From NCBI GenBank assembly GCA_963754655.1, contig CAVWGN010000001.1, positions 2,784,001 through 2,848,000 of the forward strand: a stretch of 64,000 bases of DNA, in the 5' to 3' direction. The position numbers were made by a program, and so were the translations under genes. The notes under the pieces were generated by a model. That model worked only from the letters and a program-made list of their open reading frames with translations. It had not been told where the DNA came from and ran no database searches. Numbering within the stretch: the first letter of the stretch is position 1; each line of letters opens with the position of its first letter. The DNA is from an uncultured Chlamydiae bacterium. Its GTDB lineage: Bacteria; Chlamydiota; Chlamydiia; Chlamydiales; Parachlamydiaceae. This document shows positions 9,606 through 58,449 of this stretch, in pieces.

Positions 9606-9782
9606 ACTTTTATAAGTAAATCCTATCATTAATATAAAACTATTCAAAAAAAGCTACGAAGAAAACAATAAAAGTCATTTTTGGTGAGCACTCAAAACAC
9701 TTAGGATCAATACAACACGGTTTGGATGTCATCTCAACTGTCTAAAATAAAATATGTGTAAGTCTTAGCTTTTTCTATCCCA

Positions 9783-10204
9783 CATTCCTAGACCAGGAGA
9801 ATAAGTTTTTTGAATTAGTTAAGGGCTGCTAAGGGCCCTGTCGTTAGGCCTGAAGGGCCGTCATGTTACAGCTCAGGTCGAAGCGAAGCGGAGGCCTGGG
9901 TAAAATAAAAAAAGAATCGAGTCCTGAAAGGACGGCATAAATTAATCCCACAAATATTCGGTGTTCTTTTTGAGAAGCAAGATATTTTTTCTCCTTCTAG
10001 AGCTAATGTAGAGATAGAAAATCCTCCATTCCCTTGCGAAGCGAAATCACTCCTTTGAGTATGCCGTCCTTTCAGGACTCGATTTTTTTTTATTTTACCC
10101 AGGCCTCGGCTTCGCTTCGACCTGGGCTATAACATGACGGCCCTTCAGGCCTAACGACAGAGCTCTTATCTAATTCAAAAACTTATCTTCCTGGTCTAGG
10201 AATG
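9783..10204. mobile_element. Non-autonomous palindromic element: CTAG-bounded outer inverted ends, inverted three-hairpin arms and an internal tnpA remnant
   Basis: CCTAGACCAGGA...TCCTGGTCTAGG outer ends. Arms ~9838-9939 and ~10060-10162 are reverse complements. The spacer encodes TnpA C-terminal motifs on the minus strand. Confidence 0.85.
9942..10045 (-). pseudogene. Degenerate, internally deleted IS200-class tnpA fragment
   Basis: Minus strand in shifting frames reads FASQGNGGFSIS, KYLASQKEH, EYLWD*, versus FGWQDGYGVFSVS, DYIKRQKEYH, KYLP* in the intact TnpA at 18159-18605. Confidence 0.7.
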
Positions 10205-10415
10205 GGATTCTATGCATGAAAACAACGCAGTTTATGGCGGCCTATATGAGAAGACAACAAATAGCCAATTATATCTTACAAATGGAAACAAAATAAACAG
10301 TTCATACCCATCTTCTAAATAAATGATAATCATTCATTAAATCTTACGCTCTATCTTGGGGCGTGTTTGCAAAATGCTAGTATCCTAAGATTATAAAGAA
10401 TGGTTTAGCATCAAC

Positions 10416-16298: not shown

Positions 16299-16538
16299 AT
16301 GAATGCAAACAAAATAGGCAAAATGGTTCATTTTCATCGCAAAAAGAGTGGCTTATCTCAAGAAGAGCTCGCCAGGCTTGCTGGATTAGGTAAAACAGTC
16401 ATTTTTGATATTGAAAAAGGAAAACTTACCGTTCGTCTAGCGACTCTATTAAAGGTTTTAGAAGTATTGAATATTAAAATGGAATTTCAAAGCTCATTGA
16501 TGGGCCTATTTGAGGAACAACTAGATGAAAAGAGCTAA
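16299..16538 (+). CDS. hipB: HipB-like XRE HTH regulator
   Basis: RKKSGLSQEELARLAGLGKT.I..IEKG HTH; first gene of an overlapping three-gene operon. Confidence 0.85.
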   Translation: MNANKIGKMVHFHRKKSGLSQEELARLAGLGKTVIFDIEKGKLTVRLATLLKVLEVLNIKMEFQSSLMGLFEEQLDEKS

Positions 16539-16836
16539 GGTATTTGTTAATGGCACTCTGGCAGGTGAGCTTCAGGAAATTGAGCGAGGCAAAAAATATC
16601 TTTTTATCTATCTAGACACTTATGAGGGACCCTCTGTTTCTTTAGAAATGCCTCTATCAAAATCTGTCTATGAATTTGATCGTTTTCCTCCATTTTTCGA
16701 GGGTTTACTTCCAGAAGGAATCATGTTAGAAGGGCTTTTGCGGCAAACCAAAATAGATCGGCATGATTTAATGTCTCAAATTATTACAGTTGGAGAAGAT
16801 CTTGTTGGAAATGTTACAATAGAGGCCGCAGAATGA
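16525..16836 (+). CDS. hipS: HipA N-terminal domain protein (HipS-like antitoxin)
   Basis: A.VFVNG.LAG.L, VSL.MP, PPFFEGLLPEG, D.VGNV. Confidence 0.8.
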   Translation: MKRAKVFVNGTLAGELQEIERGKKYLFIYLDTYEGPSVSLEMPLSKSVYEFDRFPPFFEGLLPEGIMLEGLLRQTKIDRHDLMSQIITVGEDLVGNVTIEAAE

Positions 16837-17759
16837 ATCGCTGCCCCATTACATACGAATTATGTGGAAAGCAGAAATACTCAACTAAAGGGATTAAGCT
16901 ACTTTCTAAAAATTTAAAAAATCTAAAAAATTTTCCTTATACTTTCAAAGAACAGATACAATTAGCAACTCAGCTTGCAGCCAAATTATCAATTCAAGGG
17001 ATACAACCGAAATTAAGTATCAATTTGAACGTTACAAAGGAAGAGTTTGAAATTGTAGAAAGAGATGGCAAATTCATCTTAAAGCCCCCGCATCACATCT
17101 ATGACGAACTTCCACAAAATGAAGATCTCACTATGAAATTAGCTAAAATTGTAGGGATAGAAGTTCCTCTTCATGGTATGATTTATAACATTGATGATTC
17201 TTTAAGCTATTTTATTAAACGGTTCGATCGATTACCGAGAAATCAAAAAGTCGCAGTTGAGGACTTCTCCCAAATTTTAGGTTTTTCTCGAGAAACAAAG
17301 TACGAATCCAGTATGGAAAAAGTGATTTCTGTCATACAGAAACACTGCACATTTCCTGTTATAGAAAAGTTAAAATTATTCCGTCTTGCAATCTTTAATT
17401 TTCTTGTAGGAAATGAGGATATGCATTTGAAAAATTTTTCATTAATTAGGCGGGAGAACAAAGTAGAACTAAGCCCTGCTTATGATCTTTTAAATACAAC
17501 AATTGTTACCAACGCTCAAGAAGAAATTGCTCTTCCCATAAAAGGGAAAAAAAGAAACCTTAATCGAGCTGATTTTATCGCATATTTTGGAATTGAAAGA
17601 TTAGGTTTTACTGAAGCTGTACTAAAAGAAGAAATTTTAAAATTTGAGAAATCACTAGATTTCTGGCATCTTCTTATAGATCAAAGCTTTTTATCGCAAA
17701 AACTGCAGGCACGTTATCACGAATTAATAAAAGGGCGTTGGCAACGAATAAAGAAATAG
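16833..17759 (+). CDS. hipT: HipA-family kinase toxin (HipT-like)
   Basis: LSIQGIQPK P-loop, ILKP, NE.LTM.LA, RFDR, EDF.Q, GNEDMHLKNFS, LSPAYDL. Confidence 0.88.
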   Translation: MNRCPITYELCGKQKYSTKGIKLLSKNLKNLKNFPYTFKEQIQLATQLAAKLSIQGIQPKLSINLNVTKEEFEIVERDGKFILKPPHHIYDELPQNEDLTMKLAKIVGIEVPLHGMIYNIDDSLSYFIKRFDRLPRNQKVAVEDFSQILGFSRETKYESSMEKVISVIQKHCTFPVIEKLKLFRLAIFNFLVGNEDMHLKNFSLIRRENKVELSPAYDLLNTTIVTNAQEEIALPIKGKKRNLNRADFIAYFGIERLGFTEAVLKEEILKFEKSLDFWHLLIDQSFLSQKLQARYHELIKGRWQRIKK

Positions 17760-17864: not shown

Positions 17865-17971
17865 CAGAGAGAAATCTAGCATGCCATGATGACATTTCAG
17901 CATACGAATTTATCATGGCAAATCATGCAAAATCACGTGATGTACTGGCCCACATTTGGCCCCGCAAAATT
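17865..17971 (+). repeat. ~100-bp direct repeat, right of the hip module
   Basis: Matches 16026-16128. Confidence 0.8.
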
Positions 17972-18059
17972 ACTCGAAATAATTTTTATTTAATGGATAG
18001 TAGTCATGGGTGCAGGCATAGCTCAATATCATCAACTTAAAGACATTGGTTGATGCGAA

Positions 18060-18154
18060 GCGGCGCTAGCCGCGCCGGATAATAGACGTGGGTGGAGGCG
18101 CAGCCGAAACCCACGGTAAGCTTAGGAGAACCTTAAGCCACGTAGTGGCGCAGC
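18060..18154 (+). repeat. Three-hairpin REP-like arm abutting the tnpA stop codon
   Basis: GCGGCGCTAGCCGC, CGTGGGTGGAGGCGCAGCCGAAACCCACG, GCCACGTAGTGGC; same family as the arms at 19.8-21.9 kb and 56.5-58.1 kb. Confidence 0.85.
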
Positions 18155-18158
18155 TTTT

Positions 18159-18605
18159 TCAAGGCAAATATTTCTCCTCATACTGAATATTGTAATGGTT
18201 AAGAAAAAGAACGAATTCTTCCCGAAATGTGAATTTTTTATGATACTCTTTCTGACGTTTAATATAATCGATCACCTTCTCAACAGTAGAAGGACTAACG
18301 GAAAAGACACCATAGCCATCTTGCCATCCAAACAAATCTTGCTTTGAAAGATCCTTCATAAATAAAGAAGATTTAGCTTTAACCGCACGCATGAGACTTG
18401 AAATAGCAATATTGGGATGTAAACTGATCAAAAGATGAACGTGATCTTCAATTCCACCAATGCAAATTAATTTTCCATTCTCTTTTTTAATAACACCTCC
18501 AATATAGGCATATAGCCGGTCTCGAATTTCAGGTTTAATGAATGGCAATCGATTTTTTGTGGACCAAATCACGTGGAAAGTCAAGCAAGCAAATGTGTTA
18601 GCCAT
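18159..18605 (-). CDS. tnpA: IS200/IS605-class HUH (Y1) transposase TnpA, REP-associated candidate
   Basis: H.IWSTKNR, DHVHLL (HUH), WQDGYGVFSVS, YIKRQ (catalytic Tyr); no tnpB adjacent. Confidence 0.92.
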   Translation of the reverse strand: MANTFACLTFHVIWSTKNRLPFIKPEIRDRLYAYIGGVIKKENGKLICIGGIEDHVHLLISLHPNIAISSLMRAVKAKSSLFMKDLSKQDLFGWQDGYGVFSVSPSTVEKVIDYIKRQKEYHKKFTFREEFVLFLNHYNIQYEEKYLP

Positions 18606-19619: not shown

Positions 19620-19852
19620 TAAATATAACTTATAAGGCACTCTGAGGTAGCTTATAAGGAAAACATTCGGAGTTATTCTCTAAGAGGGGTCAGGCTTGGC
19701 ATTCTAAATCCTAGCCTATGGCTAGGTAATCGGAATTTTTTATCTTTGTTTTTGCAATGTTGCTTAATCCATATCATTCCCTCAGCGACAAGCGGCGTTA
19801 GCCGCGCATGGATAGTAGCCGTGGGTGTAGGCGCAAGCCGAAACCCACGGCT

Positions 19853-21176
19853 AGTTGTGTCAAGTATTATGTGCAAATTGGTAAGAGATCTCATTAGGTT
19901 AAGCTATTTTTTCAACGCTCAGTTGTTCTTGTTTCTTTTGCTCTTTTAATAGATCCATATTTAAATATCTTTTATCTACCCATCCCTCATGAACCTCAAC
20001 TGCAATTGCTAATATCAATCTTAAGCAACTCTCTTCATTTGGAAAAATTCTAATAACGTGTGTTCTTCTCTTAATTTCTTCATTTACTCTCTCGAGTAAG
20101 TTCGAACTTTTTAAATGCTTATGATGTTGTTTTGGAAACTGGTAAAACGTTAATGTCTCAAAAATATTTTCCTCCACCCATGTACATAACTTTGGATACT
20201 TCATCATCCACTTCTCTAGCCACATATTCAAATCTGTTTTGGCTTCTTTAATATCCTTTCTATCATAGATCCATCGCAATTCTTGTAAGCAATCGTCGTT
20301 TGCTTTTCTTGGTAAATAATCAATTGCATTTCTTAAGAAATGAACATAACATCTTTGCCAAGGGATTTGATAAAATACTTCCATTATCGCTTTCCTAAGC
20401 CCTGCATGCTCATCACTAATAATCAACTCAACTCCTATTAATCCTCTTTCTTTCAATCTCAATAGAAAATCTTTCCAACTATTGTGAGATTCTCGATTTG
20501 CAATTTCCACTGCTAATACTTGCCTGTAACCTTCTCCATTCACACCTACTGCAATTAATATAGCCTGCGATTTTACTATCCCATTTTCTCTAACTTTCTC
20601 ATAACGAGCATCTACAATTAGATAAGGATAAACTTCTGTCAATTTTCTATTTGCAAACTGCTTTAAGTCCTCGTCCAAGCTCTTATTGATGTTGCTTATT
20701 GTCGTCGCTGAAAATTCATGTCCGCAAAGTTCTTCTGTGATTGCCTTCACTTTCCTGGTTGATACTCCTTGGACATACATTTCTGCTAGAGCTGATACTA
20801 ATGCTTTTTCCGATCTTTCATATCGTTCAAAAAGCTCGGTAGAAAACATTCCCTCTCTGTCTCTTGGTACTTTTAGCTCTATATTGCCTATTCGCGTCAC
20901 TAAGTGCCTTGTATAATAACCTGCTCTATAGCCTTTTCTTTCTTTGGATCTTTCACTCTTATTTGCTTCCAAAGTCTCGATCATTTCGGCTTCTAAAAAA
21001 TTTTCGAGAGCAGTTTTCATAAGAGACTTCATTAAATCAACATCTTGTTCAATAACTTCTTTAGATAATTTGTTTTTCTCAATAGAATACTTTTTGGTCA
21101 TGGTATACCTCTTTTTGTAGTTAATAAGAGATCATCTTACCATGACCTTTTTTTGCACATAATTTTTTACACAATC
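19853..21176 (-). mobile_element. IS256-family insertion sequence (1324 bp), copy 1
   Basis: Imperfect TIRs GATTGTGTAAAAAATTATGTGCAAA / AGTTGTGTCAAGTATTATGTGCAAA; 8-bp TSD CCACGGCT (19845-19852, 21177-21184). Confidence 0.95.
19899..21101 (-). CDS. IS256-family (mutator-type) DDE transposase
   Basis: VPRDREG.F, MYVQGVSTRKV, YLIVDA.YEKVR, ISDEHAGL, WQRCYVHF.RN, SSN.LER.N.EIKRRT. Confidence 0.95.
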   Translation of the reverse strand: MTKKYSIEKNKLSKEVIEQDVDLMKSLMKTALENFLEAEMIETLEANKSERSKERKGYRAGYYTRHLVTRIGNIELKVPRDREGMFSTELFERYERSEKALVSALAEMYVQGVSTRKVKAITEELCGHEFSATTISNINKSLDEDLKQFANRKLTEVYPYLIVDARYEKVRENGIVKSQAILIAVGVNGEGYRQVLAVEIANRESHNSWKDFLLRLKERGLIGVELIISDEHAGLRKAIMEVFYQIPWQRCYVHFLRNAIDYLPRKANDDCLQELRWIYDRKDIKEAKTDLNMWLEKWMMKYPKLCTWVEENIFETLTFYQFPKQHHKHLKSSNLLERVNEEIKRRTHVIRIFPNEESCLRLILAIAVEVHEGWVDKRYLNMDLLKEQKKQEQLSVEKIA

Positions 21177-22008
21177 CCACGGCTACCCTCAAAACAAATT
21201 TGAGCCACGTTAGTGGCGTAGCATTCGTTTAAATAAAAATTGCTCCACAATCACAATTTCCTACGCCACTAACGTGGCTTCATTTTTTTTACCATACACC
21301 GTGGGTTTCGGCTTGCGCCTACACCCACGGCTACTATCCATGCGCGGCTAACGCCGCTTGAGCGATAAATTCAGCTTCCGGGGATTTGCCACAAGCATTT
21401 CGTTCCTAGCCTATGGCTAGGCAATCGAAATTTTTTATCTTTGTTTTTGCAATGTTGCTTGATCCATATCATTTCCCTCAGCGACGAGCGGCGTTAGCCG
21501 CGCATGAATAGTAGCCGTGGGTGTAGGCGAAGCCGGAACCCACGGCTACTATCCATGCGCGGCTAACGCCGCTTGAGCGACAAATTTAGCTTCCGGGGAT
21601 TTGCCACAAGCATTTCGTTCCTAGCCTATGGCTAGGCAATCGAAATTTTTTATCTTTGTTTTTGCAATGTTGCTTGATCCATATCATTTCCCTCAGCGAC
21701 GAGCGGCGTTAGCCGCGCATGGATAGTAGCCGTGGGTGTAGGCGAAGCCGGAACCCACGGTGTATGGTAAAAAAATGAAGCCACGTTAGTGGCGTAGCAT
21801 TCGTTTAAAAAACATTGCTCCACAATCACATTTCCTACGCCACTAACGTGGCTTCATTTTTTTTACCATACACCGTGGGTTCCGGCTTTGCCTACACCCA
21901 CGGCTACTATCCATGCGCGGCTAACGCCGCTTGAGCGACAAATTTAGCTTCTGGAGTTTGCCAGGAGCTATTTTGTGACTAGCTTCGTGGATAGTCAGTC
22001 GGAATTTT

Positions 22009-38929: not shown

Positions 38930-39250
38930 GTGTGATTAAATCTGGGAGTTTATATTTTTTAGCAGATCGATACGAAATAGTAGGGCGGCGGTAGCCGCTT
39001 TTCAGGGGGAAGCTCCGTATGAAGCGAGCTTGCGAGCGGAATGCGGGTGTAGGCAAGATAGTATTGAGCTGCGGAAGCAGCGTAAGATCACTTACACCAC
39101 TTCCGCGGTTGATATTTTATTGATGTCCACCCCGCGCATTCCGCTCGCAAGCTCGCTTCATACGGGGCTTCCCCCTGAAAAGCGGCTACCGCCGCCCTAC
39201 TATTTCGTATCGATCTGCTAAAAAATATAAACTCCCAGATTTAATCACAC
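38930..39250. repeat. ~320-bp palindromic REPIN/MITE-like element with ~118-bp near-perfect arms
   Basis: GTGTGATTAAATCTGGGAG...GGAATGCG and its reverse complement; internal hairpins GCGGCGGTAGCCGC and GCTGCGGAAGCAGC. Confidence 0.92.
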
Positions 39251-56215: not shown

Positions 56216-56288
56216 CAGAGCCTAGTACTCAACCACATTAGTTTTGCCTAGTGGGGCTGCTTCAAAGCCCGGGTTGGAAATAGCCCAG

Positions 56289-56437
56289 GGCCGGGACTTA
56301 ACAAAGAACTATTTTGGGCTTGATATTCATCGCGCCAATTTAACAACACGGCGCCTGTAATAGACTTTAGAGGCATATTTCCCGAAAATGGCGCGAAAAA
56401 CATCAAGCCCAAAACAGTTCTTTGTTAAGTCCCGGCC
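56289..56437. mobile_element. 149-bp MITE-like element with ~36-bp TIRs
   Basis: GGCCGGGACTTAACAAAGAACTATTTTGGGCTTGAT ... ATCAAGCCCAAAACAGTTCTTTGTTAAGTCCCGGCC. Confidence 0.8.
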
Positions 56438-56572
56438 ATAGGCTAGGAACGAAATGCTTCTAGCAAACTCCAGAAGCTAAATTTGTCGCTCAAGCGGCTT
56501 TAGCCGCGCATGGATAGTAGTCGTGGGTGTAGACGCAAGCCGAAACCCACGGTGTATGGTAAAAAAAATGAA

Positions 56573-57896
56573 GATTGTGTAAAAAATTATGTGCAAAAAA
56601 AGGTCATGGTAAGATGATCTCTTATTAACTACAAAAAGAGGTATACCATGACCAAAAAGTATTCTATTGAGAAAAACAAATTATCTAAAGAAGTTATTGA
56701 ACAAGATGTTGATTTAATGAAGTCTCTTATGAAAACTGCTCTCGAAAATTTTTTAGAAGCCGAAATGATCGAGACTTTGGAAGCAAATAAGAGTGAAAGA
56801 TCCAAAGAAAGAAAAGGCTATAGAGCAGGTTATTATACAAGGCACTTAGTGACGCGAATAGGCAATATAGAGCTAAAAGTACCAAGAGACAGAGAGGGAA
56901 TGTTTTCTACCGAGCTTTTTGAACGATATGAAAGATCGGAAAAAGCATTAGTATCAGCTCTAGCAGAAATGTATGTCCAAGGAGTATCAACCAGGAAAGT
57001 GAAGGCAATCACAGAAGAACTTTGCGGACATGAATTTTCAGCGACGACAATAAGCAACATCAATAAGAGCTTGGACGAGGACTTAAAGCAGTTTGCAAAT
57101 AGAAAATTGACAGAAGTTTATCCTTATCTAATTGTAGATGCTCGTTATGAGAAAGTTAGAGAAAATGGGATAGTAAAATCGCAGGCTATATTAATTGCAG
57201 TAGGTGTGAATGGAGAAGGTTACAGGCAAGTATTAGCAGTGGAAATTGCAAATCGAGAATCTCACAATAGTTGGAAAGATTTTCTATTGAGATTGAAAGA
57301 AAGAGGATTAATAGGAGTTGAGTTGATTATTAGTGATGAGCATGCAGGGCTTAGGAAAGCGATAATGGAAGTATTTTATCAAATCCCTTGGCAAAGATGT
57401 TATGTTCATTTCTTAAGAAATGCAATTGATTATTTACCAAGAAAAGCAAACGACGATTGCTTACAAGAATTGCGATGGATCTATGATAGAAAGGATATTA
57501 AAGAAGCCAAAACAGATTTGAATATGTGGCTAGAGAAGTGGATGATGAAGTATCCAAAGTTATGTACATGGGTGGAGGAAAATATTTTTGAGACATTAAC
57601 GTTTTACCAGTTTCCAAAACAACATCATAAGCATTTAAAAAGTTCGAACTTACTCGAGAGAGTAAATGAAGAAATTAAGAGAAGAACACACGTTATTAGA
57701 ATTTTTCCAAATGAAGAGAGTTGCTTAAGATTGATATTAGCAATTGCAGTTGAGGTTCATGAGGGATGGGTAGATAAAAGATATTTAAATATGGATCTAT
57801 TAAAAGAGCAAAAGAAACAAGAACAACTGAGCGTTGAAAAAATAGCTTAACCTAATGAGATCTCTTACCAATTTGCACATAATACTTGACACAACT
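56573..57896 (+). mobile_element. IS256-family insertion sequence (1324 bp), copy 2
   Basis: Same TIRs as copy 1; 8-bp TSD AAAATGAA (56565-56572, 57897-57904). Confidence 0.95.
56648..57850 (+). CDS. IS256-family transposase
   Basis: Translation identical to 19899-21101. Confidence 0.95.
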   Translation: MTKKYSIEKNKLSKEVIEQDVDLMKSLMKTALENFLEAEMIETLEANKSERSKERKGYRAGYYTRHLVTRIGNIELKVPRDREGMFSTELFERYERSEKALVSALAEMYVQGVSTRKVKAITEELCGHEFSATTISNINKSLDEDLKQFANRKLTEVYPYLIVDARYEKVRENGIVKSQAILIAVGVNGEGYRQVLAVEIANRESHNSWKDFLLRLKERGLIGVELIISDEHAGLRKAIMEVFYQIPWQRCYVHFLRNAIDYLPRKANDDCLQELRWIYDRKDIKEAKTDLNMWLEKWMMKYPKLCTWVEENIFETLTFYQFPKQHHKHLKSSNLLERVNEEIKRRTHVIRIFPNEESCLRLILAIAVEVHEGWVDKRYLNMDLLKEQKKQEQLSVEKIA

Positions 57897-58449
57897 AAAA
57901 TGAAGCCACGTTAGTGGCGTAGGAAATGTGATGGTGGAGCAATGTTTATTTAAACGAATGCTACGCCACTAACGGGGCTCAAATTTGTTTTGAGGGTAAC
58001 CGTGGGTTTCGGCTTGCGCCTACACCCACGGCTAATATCCATACGCGGCTAACACCGCTCGTCGCTGAGGGAAAGGATATGGATCAAGCAACATTGAAAA
58101 AACAAAGATAAAAATTCCGATTACCTAGCCATATGACGGGACTTAACAGAGAACTGTTTTGGGCTTGATGTTTTTCGCGTCATTTTCGGGAAATATGCCT
58201 CTAAAGTCTATTACAGGAGTGGTGTTGTTAAATTGATGCGACGAATATCAAGTCCAAAAATAGTTCTTTGTTGAAGCAGCCCCACTAGGCAAAAACTCAT
58301 GTGGTTGAGTACTAGGGCGCAGCGGCGCGGCGACTGAATCGTTGCTTTAAGCCTACGCTCATCTCTTAAATTAACGCATAAGGATTTAAAACCATCCCAA
58401 TAGGCCAAAACTAATGTGCCAGAGTACCAGCTATCACTGTTGAAAAGAA

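Follow-up and report, generated by a model that had tools for sequence, protein, structure and literature searches.

The window analysed here, a stretch of 64,000 nucleotides (C1:2784001-2848000) in a 3.16 Mb genome assembled in two contigs (G000), holds at positions 9779-10207 an element of 429 bases that is organized as a mirror-image repeat. Two arms of 96 nt, each with the potential to form three hairpins, enclose a spacer of 118 bp, and outside each arm lies a 57-bp outer end, here called the shell, with CCCAC as the terminus of the element. The left shell (9779-9845, forward strand; terminus CCCACATTCC) carries a 10-bp insertion absent from other copies, and the right shell (10153-10207, reverse strand) ends in a variant terminus. 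A 6-bp target-site duplication, TTCTAT, flanks the element at 9773-9778 and 10208-10213. The earlier note on this DNA had placed the element at 9783-10204 and was right about its presence, but the true ends are 9779 and 10207. The left arm (9846-9941, forward strand; hairpins at about 9847-9859, 9871-9901 and 9921-9933) and the right arm (10060-10152, reverse strand) belong to a structure whose two sides, 9830-9913 and 10085-10168 (84 nt), show 94% complementarity. Folding of the whole stretch gave -166 kcal/mol (z -22.6), a value reached by none of 100 shuffles, while a single arm taken alone is no more stable than its shuffles (z -0.3 to -1.7). Part of the right arm (10098-10152) scores 38 bits on the Rfam family RF01687, Acido-Lenti-1 (gathering threshold 37), against 25.5 bits for the left arm, and two arm hairpins pass; matches to miRNA families lay far below gathering, reflect the long hairpin and were discarded. 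Being short, non-coding and bounded by terminal inverted repeats, the element is MITE-like.

The spacer consists of pieces of a tnpA gene on the reverse strand. Next to the left arm, which lies downstream of the tnpA stop, come the last 17 nt of the gene including its stop codon (9942-9958), identical to those of the intact tnpA at C1:396202-395750 in the same genome, followed by decayed codons 92-123 (9960-10048) and by the gene's leader and ribosome-binding site (10049-10059), which is fused to codon 92 after deletion of the start codon and codons 1-91. Two deletions have thus brought the ribosome-binding site next to codons 92-123, and these next to the last codons. Aligned to C1:396202, codons 92-123 are 82% identical, with one codon lost and a frameshift, and are separated from the final 17 nt by a 68-nt gap; the HUH motif is lost and the codon for the catalytic Tyr115 is kept. 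The remnant makes no protein: it has no start codon, and frameshifts are present in every copy aligned. The distance from its stop codon (9942-9944) to the inner hairpin stem is 8 nt, compared with 9 nt at the window's own tnpA (18159-18605, reverse strand); the earlier note had taken the stop to abut the arm in exactly the same way at both places.

That note had also read three peptides in the spacer as the C-terminal motifs of the window's own TnpA. The peptides do occur on the reverse strand at 9942-10048 in the order given, but in three different frames, and it is the choice of comparator that fails. The gene at 18159-18605 is an intact Y1 tnpA (PF01797) of a different arm family, with an arm downstream only, and no significant match links it to the spacer (tblastn E 0.13 with a 141-nt subject; DNA score 17 against a null mean of 19, equalled or exceeded by 428 of 500 shuffles), so that it was rejected as parent. 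The likeness to a TnpA C-terminus holds instead for C1:396202, with a DNA score of 85 where the best of 500 shuffles reached 27, and the seven other loci tested scored between 15 and 32. A profile search was likewise significant: a DNA profile built from 63 relatives, with the genome itself excluded, finds the spacer at E 2.7e-4 genome-wide. The genome contains six full-length genes of this type. When the spacer was searched in 400 genomes (two candidates scored per genome, G117 excluded), the sole substantial outside match was to an intact tnpA in G024.

C1:396202 was rejected as the direct and recent parent, the remnant being just 82% identical to it and about as distant from it as from the related genes L049, L050 and L054. 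The remnant is about 80% identical to intact genes, with changes spread over all codon positions: differences from four intact genes at first, second and third positions number 5/5/6, 6/5/8, 5/5/9 and 5/4/8. Among the intact genes, compared over nearly the same block, the counts are 1/3/7, 0/3/9, 0/1/7, 1/1/9, 1/2/2 and 0/2/9 and fall mostly at third positions. This difference in distribution indicates that the gene died and decayed first, and that a single decayed copy spread later.

The gene at C1:396202 belongs to the same arm family as the element. Its downstream arm, with outer end, is identical to the left arm (9846-9941) at 93 of 96 nt, while the upstream arm is degraded (78/93) and lacks the outer end. 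The product, of about 148 aa, has the marks DHIH, WQ and Y---Q--HH, has no Y---NP, and contains a Y1_Tnp core (PF01797, E 6e-25); it fails the RAYT model NF047646 (22.8 bits, cut-off 80) and passes the IS200 model NF033573 (64.3, cut-off 55). By this motif signature it would be assigned to TnpA-Y1 subclass 1.2. The gene is under purifying selection, with 30 of its 46 differences from L049 at third positions. In relatives among the other Chlamydiota, this arm family is found on both sides of an intact tnpA in L049 (87% protein identity), L050, L052, L053 and L055, and around a broken tnpA in L057. The suggestion that the arm family with TGAA loops has its own cognate TnpA is thereby borne out, by C1:396202 in the genome itself and by relatives with both arms intact; with a significant TnpA match and intact arm-tnpA-arm units both in hand, the derivation of the spacer from a tnpA stands. 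A wider set of 108 related tnpA loci was reduced to 90 scored loci after removal of 5 (duplicates or own-genome) and 13 (short flanks). Inverted flanks with a score of at least 60 were present in 37 of the 90, and none of 66 control flank pairs reached a score of 40. Over 25 offsets, 2 of these 37 intact genes had a repeat of at least 5 bp at their arm ends, and the intact units in relatives have no shells.

Seven copies of the element with both termini are present in the genome, namely the window copy and those at C1:233967, 629810, 960405, 972914, 1797106 and 2325054. They share identical junctions and lie at unrelated sites. The copy at C1:629810 is interrupted by another element, which has rve and IS481 zipper domains; the six uninterrupted copies are 97.1-99.3% alike, a mark of recent spread. 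Three further copies are damaged or variant: a partial one at C1:2444757, one at C1:1250587 with a third deletion and a 73-nt spacer, and a sister remnant at C1:1345670 (74/89 nt identical), which has the second deletion in common and another arm subtype. The outer hairpin is the direct neighbour of most full-length shells. Target duplications are of 6 bp in five of the seven copies, of 5 bp in one and absent from one, to be set against 452 of 200,000 random pairs and 6 of 84 cross-pairings of real flanks with slack. With the first, uncorrected ends just four of seven copies reached 5 bp; the ends of the window copy and of C1:1797106 were moved by 1-2 bases, for 1-2-base terminal changes, and placed after the flanks had been seen, and three of the five copies with 6 bp deviate from the usual end in their last 1-2 bases. 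The copy at C1:2325054 is nested in an older shell, and in homologous shells the duplicated word is present a single time. Targets are AT-rich and, in a scan for 110-codon frames, intergenic, except for short frames over two copies. No empty site of a sister strain was seen: the flanking gene was not found in three same-genus genomes with one query, and sequencing run X1 gave nine short contig pieces and no joint. The earlier description of the element as caught mid-formation is contradicted by these observations, as the remnant is an old fossil that was later copied as a finished unit to seven sites with target duplications.

Arms of this family are dispersed through the genome, with 332 matches (259 of at least 80 nt) at 158 loci and one close tnpA. 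Adjacent full arms form 93 outward-facing, 7 inward-facing and 11 tandem pairs. A tnpA remnant is present in all seven inward pairs, while the 93 outward pairs have no trace of tnpA and are therefore not products of collapse. Outward pairs flank an intact gene on both sides in L050, so the outward form needs no collapse. They also sit in a different shell (b-shell), with duplications of 6-10 bp (mode 8) in 21 of 61 cases and none in 40. The same target word as that of the outward pairs is used by a 12-copy IS with 8-9-bp repeats, one copy of which gave no Pfam match. A 12-copy IS with a 439-aa frame and no Pfam match (C1:2444899-2446759; L018:1441-2760) inserts at the middle arm hairpin. The inward spacer occurs in graded states of collapse, at 450 nt when intact, 118-119 nt and 73 nt. 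The proposal that such palindromes arise by internal deletion of arm-tnpA-arm elements thus holds for this element, given the tnpA remnant, C1:396202 and the arm-tnpA-arm relatives, but not as a general route, since inward pairs are 7 of 100 inverted pairs. In two other genomes (G020, L155-L184; G033, L156 and L158) inward doublets are many and have their own AT-rich outer extensions. Inward pairs with spacers of about 14 nt occur at 21 of 30 loci in these genomes (L158 and L160 being one place), without a consistent duplication at the arm ends; an origin of these spacers from tnpA cannot be proved. A close tnpA was not found in G020 with the query used, the best match being 41%.

Collapse is not confined to this element: tnpA relics with different junctions also occur in a second arm family of the genome. 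Its intact tnpA genes lie at C1:2542103 and 2544233 and its collapsed derivatives at C1:428831, 452869, 1398700-1398904, about 1508800-1508629, 167114, 413085 and 3099479, three of which enclose an inverted copy of the gene's 3' end. At C1:1398265-1398650 a chimera combines the left end of the element, a 270-bp inverted-repeat insert and a second-family arm. A third arm type, with inverted repeats of about 200 bp, accompanies an intact tnpA at C1:2939095-2939976 and has 3'-end relics at C1:2432309 and 2658090. A TnpB-encoding IS (PF01385, PF07282), which we take to be IS607-like, joins the sister remnant to a third-family arm at C1:1345768-1347599. Older variants of the outer end, some truncated or with other cargo, were seen at C1:2328214, 2330924, 2333960, 453794, 370683 and 1255995.

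Elsewhere in the window, its own arm family occupies 17889-18158, 19709-21983 and 56281-58430, and two near-identical 1.3-kb copies of a Mutator-family IS (PF00872) lie inside it at 19852 and 56573. Another long palindrome (38930-39250; 116-nt arms, 99%) represents a further hairpin family that also adjoins the copy at C1:2325476. A two-gene pair at 16525-17759 presumably resembles a HipA-type toxin module. Locus L140 (OLNL01003293.1) is unrelated to the element and contains bacterial genes after what we take to resemble a microvirus-type gene block.

We consider the element to be a non-autonomous composite mobile element with a tnpA fossil, moved in trans by a DDE enzyme, and give this reading a probability of roughly 60%. 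Deletions removed codons 1-91, and about 68 nt close to the end, from an IS200-like Y1 gene of putative subclass 1.2 with inverted three-hairpin arms, and the tnpA scrap then decayed in the absence of selection. The unit of arms and 57-bp outer ends was later copied to at least seven AT-rich intergenic sites with 5-6-bp duplications. The mover was probably a DDE-type transposase acting in trans on the outer ends, in which case the arms and the remnant ride as cargo. Conversion among copies may have kept the arms alike and the downstream arm of C1:396202 current, while its coding part stands about 18% apart from the remnant. Staggered cuts and duplications such as these are a mark of DDE enzymes. 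IS200/IS605 elements, as described in the portions of the literature consulted, have neither terminal inverted repeats nor larger duplications (PMC2817692; PMC3119063, Table 4), which makes a DDE transposase on the outer ends the likelier mover. No transposase with matching ends was found among the multi-copy IS of the genome that were examined; such an element may be single-copy, decayed or lost. PF01609 gave 48 matches, and none of the multi-copy families fitted when their ends were compared (15 families, ends recovered for all but one); IS1380 was rejected after a profile search of the genome with no matches. No convincing inverted pair was found around a gene. The terminal 19-mer, with one mismatch allowed, gave chance-like single matches in two of 400 other genomes, without the rest of the element; metagenomes gave five matches, none with the rest of the element, and plasmids no match.

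The same failure to find a DDE enzyme with these ends favours a different mover, namely the subclass 1.2 Y1 TnpA itself, a dimer of which would introduce nicks at the two ends and connect these to staggered nicks in the target, yielding 5-6-bp duplications. As the arms are inverted, they present the same hairpin set on opposite strands. The only enzyme gene that touches a shell end is C1:396202, on its downstream side, an intact near-cognate gene under purifying selection, and the association of most full-length shells with the outer hairpin fits as well. No such chemistry is reported in the literature passages compared, however, and none of those consulted describes an HUH transposase that makes 5-6-bp target duplications. 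Moreover, C1:396202 has no upstream shell, intact units in relatives have neither shells nor, with 2 of 37 exceptions, duplications, the inward doublets of G020 and G033 lack consistent duplications at the arm ends, and other arm pairs use other shells and other duplication lengths. We therefore regard a Y1 mover as unlikely, and equally so the broader notion that subclass 1.2 Y1 enzymes are transposases of symmetric elements, reading inverted three-hairpin ends of the Acido-Lenti-1 kind on opposite strands with 5-6-bp duplications; if it were true, the seven-copy family and the tnpA at C1:396202 would form a ready substrate-enzyme pair.

Somewhat less probable still is that a REPIN formed in place by a general route for these palindromes. 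The graded collapse, the short spacers at 21 of 30 loci in G020 and G033 and the several independent tnpA relics of the second arm family speak for such a route, but the seven copies with the same junctions at unrelated sites refute formation in place, the remnant is old, the 14-nt spacers cannot be shown to derive from tnpA, and 93 of 100 inverted pairs have the outward form that flanks intact genes in L050. We hold it to be comparably improbable that host repair or recombination spread the copies without a dedicated transposase, by capture of hairpin DNA at staggered breaks. The copies with 5 bp or no duplication, the variation of termini by 1-2 bases and chimeric copies such as C1:1398265, which joins this shell to another arm family, would be accommodated, but seven insertions with the same terminus within 1-2 bases and one main duplication length argue against it. 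A chance match, or a functional short peptide or RNA in the spacer, might be suggested by the poor match to the window TnpA and by the listing of the arm motif as an sRNA in Rfam, but is highly improbable, as chance is refuted by the shuffles (0 of 500) and the profile, and a peptide is opposed by the missing start codon and the frameshifts.

Through this fossil, a palindrome without a gene is linked to one particular transposase lineage by its sequence and not by neighbourhood alone. It lends support to the collapse route in the case of one doublet orientation; the commoner orientation is left unexplained by that route. Subclass 1.2 TnpA, which has been listed without repeats, gains a candidate DNA substrate. 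The target duplications leave two options: Y1 ends ride as the cargo of a DDE enzyme, which is likely, or there is an HUH enzyme capable of making duplications, which is unlikely. Our literature search found no report of subclass 1.2 arms, though subscription papers and supplements (PMC6006769, PMC3733652) may hold one; nor did it find a multi-copy, duplication-flanked element with a subclass 1.2 fossil beside a near-cognate gene, and supplements may list such flanks.

Among known systems, TnpA-Y1 subclass 1.2 as characterized in the available part of Quentin et al. 2018 (PMC6006769) shares with the genes described here a length of about 150 aa, the marks DH[IV]H, WQ and Y---Q--HH, low copy number and divergent paralogs. 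No REP is listed for it there, whereas the genes here come with inverted arms of three hairpins each and with gene-less derivatives that are dispersed. REPIN-RAYT systems and REPtrons (Nunvar 2010, PMC2817692; Bertels & Rainey, PMC3116915 and PMC3337134; 10.1101/2021.07.10.451892) likewise combine a single-copy HUH-Tyr gene between inverted palindromic doublets with doublets that are widespread without the gene, and the two inverted palindromic units of our element pair into a long hairpin as in a REPIN. Two REPIN doublet orientations have been described (PMC3337134, in the part available), and the outward pairs around the L050 gene resemble REPINs around a RAYT. As far as the excerpts go, rayt 3' ends captured between REPs were already reported (Nunvar 2010, PMC2817692) and an origin of REPINs by fusion of flanking palindromes already proposed. 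The enzyme here, however, lies below the RAYT cut-off and is devoid of Y---NP, the class 2 mark, the arms are 96-nt three-hairpin units, and the unit that moves is bounded by an outer shell and by target duplications. Read by eye, the arm sequences showed no GT[AG]G tag at the foot of their three hairpins. The label REPIN is thus not retained, as the enzyme is not a RAYT and target duplications are present.

A possible parallel is IS200 Group 3 of Bertels et al. 2017 (10.1101/119735), which comprises IS200-side genes without duplicates and with abundant flanking 16-mers. TIRtrons (TIRYT) resemble our units in having tyrosine transposase genes in long inverted repeats and dimers elsewhere, but 20 of 26 belong to subclass 2.1 and the rest to 2.2 or 2.5, while the genes here are of class 1 (Di Nocera 2013, PMC3733652). 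The PATEs of Haloquadratum are core-deleted, non-autonomous IS200/IS605 derivatives, some with C-terminal coding remnants, yet the pages consulted give them neither terminal inverted repeats nor target duplications, both of which our element has (PMC3119063). MITEs resemble it in size (about 420 bp), in young copies that lack coding capacity, and in having terminal inverted repeats together with 5-6-bp duplications, but the interior of our element comes from a Y1 locus, and none of the multi-copy IS examined had its ends. Finally, the Acido-Lenti-1 motif (RF01687), listed as an sRNA in the passages seen of Weinberg 2010 (PMC2864571), is recast here as the end structure of a tnpA unit.
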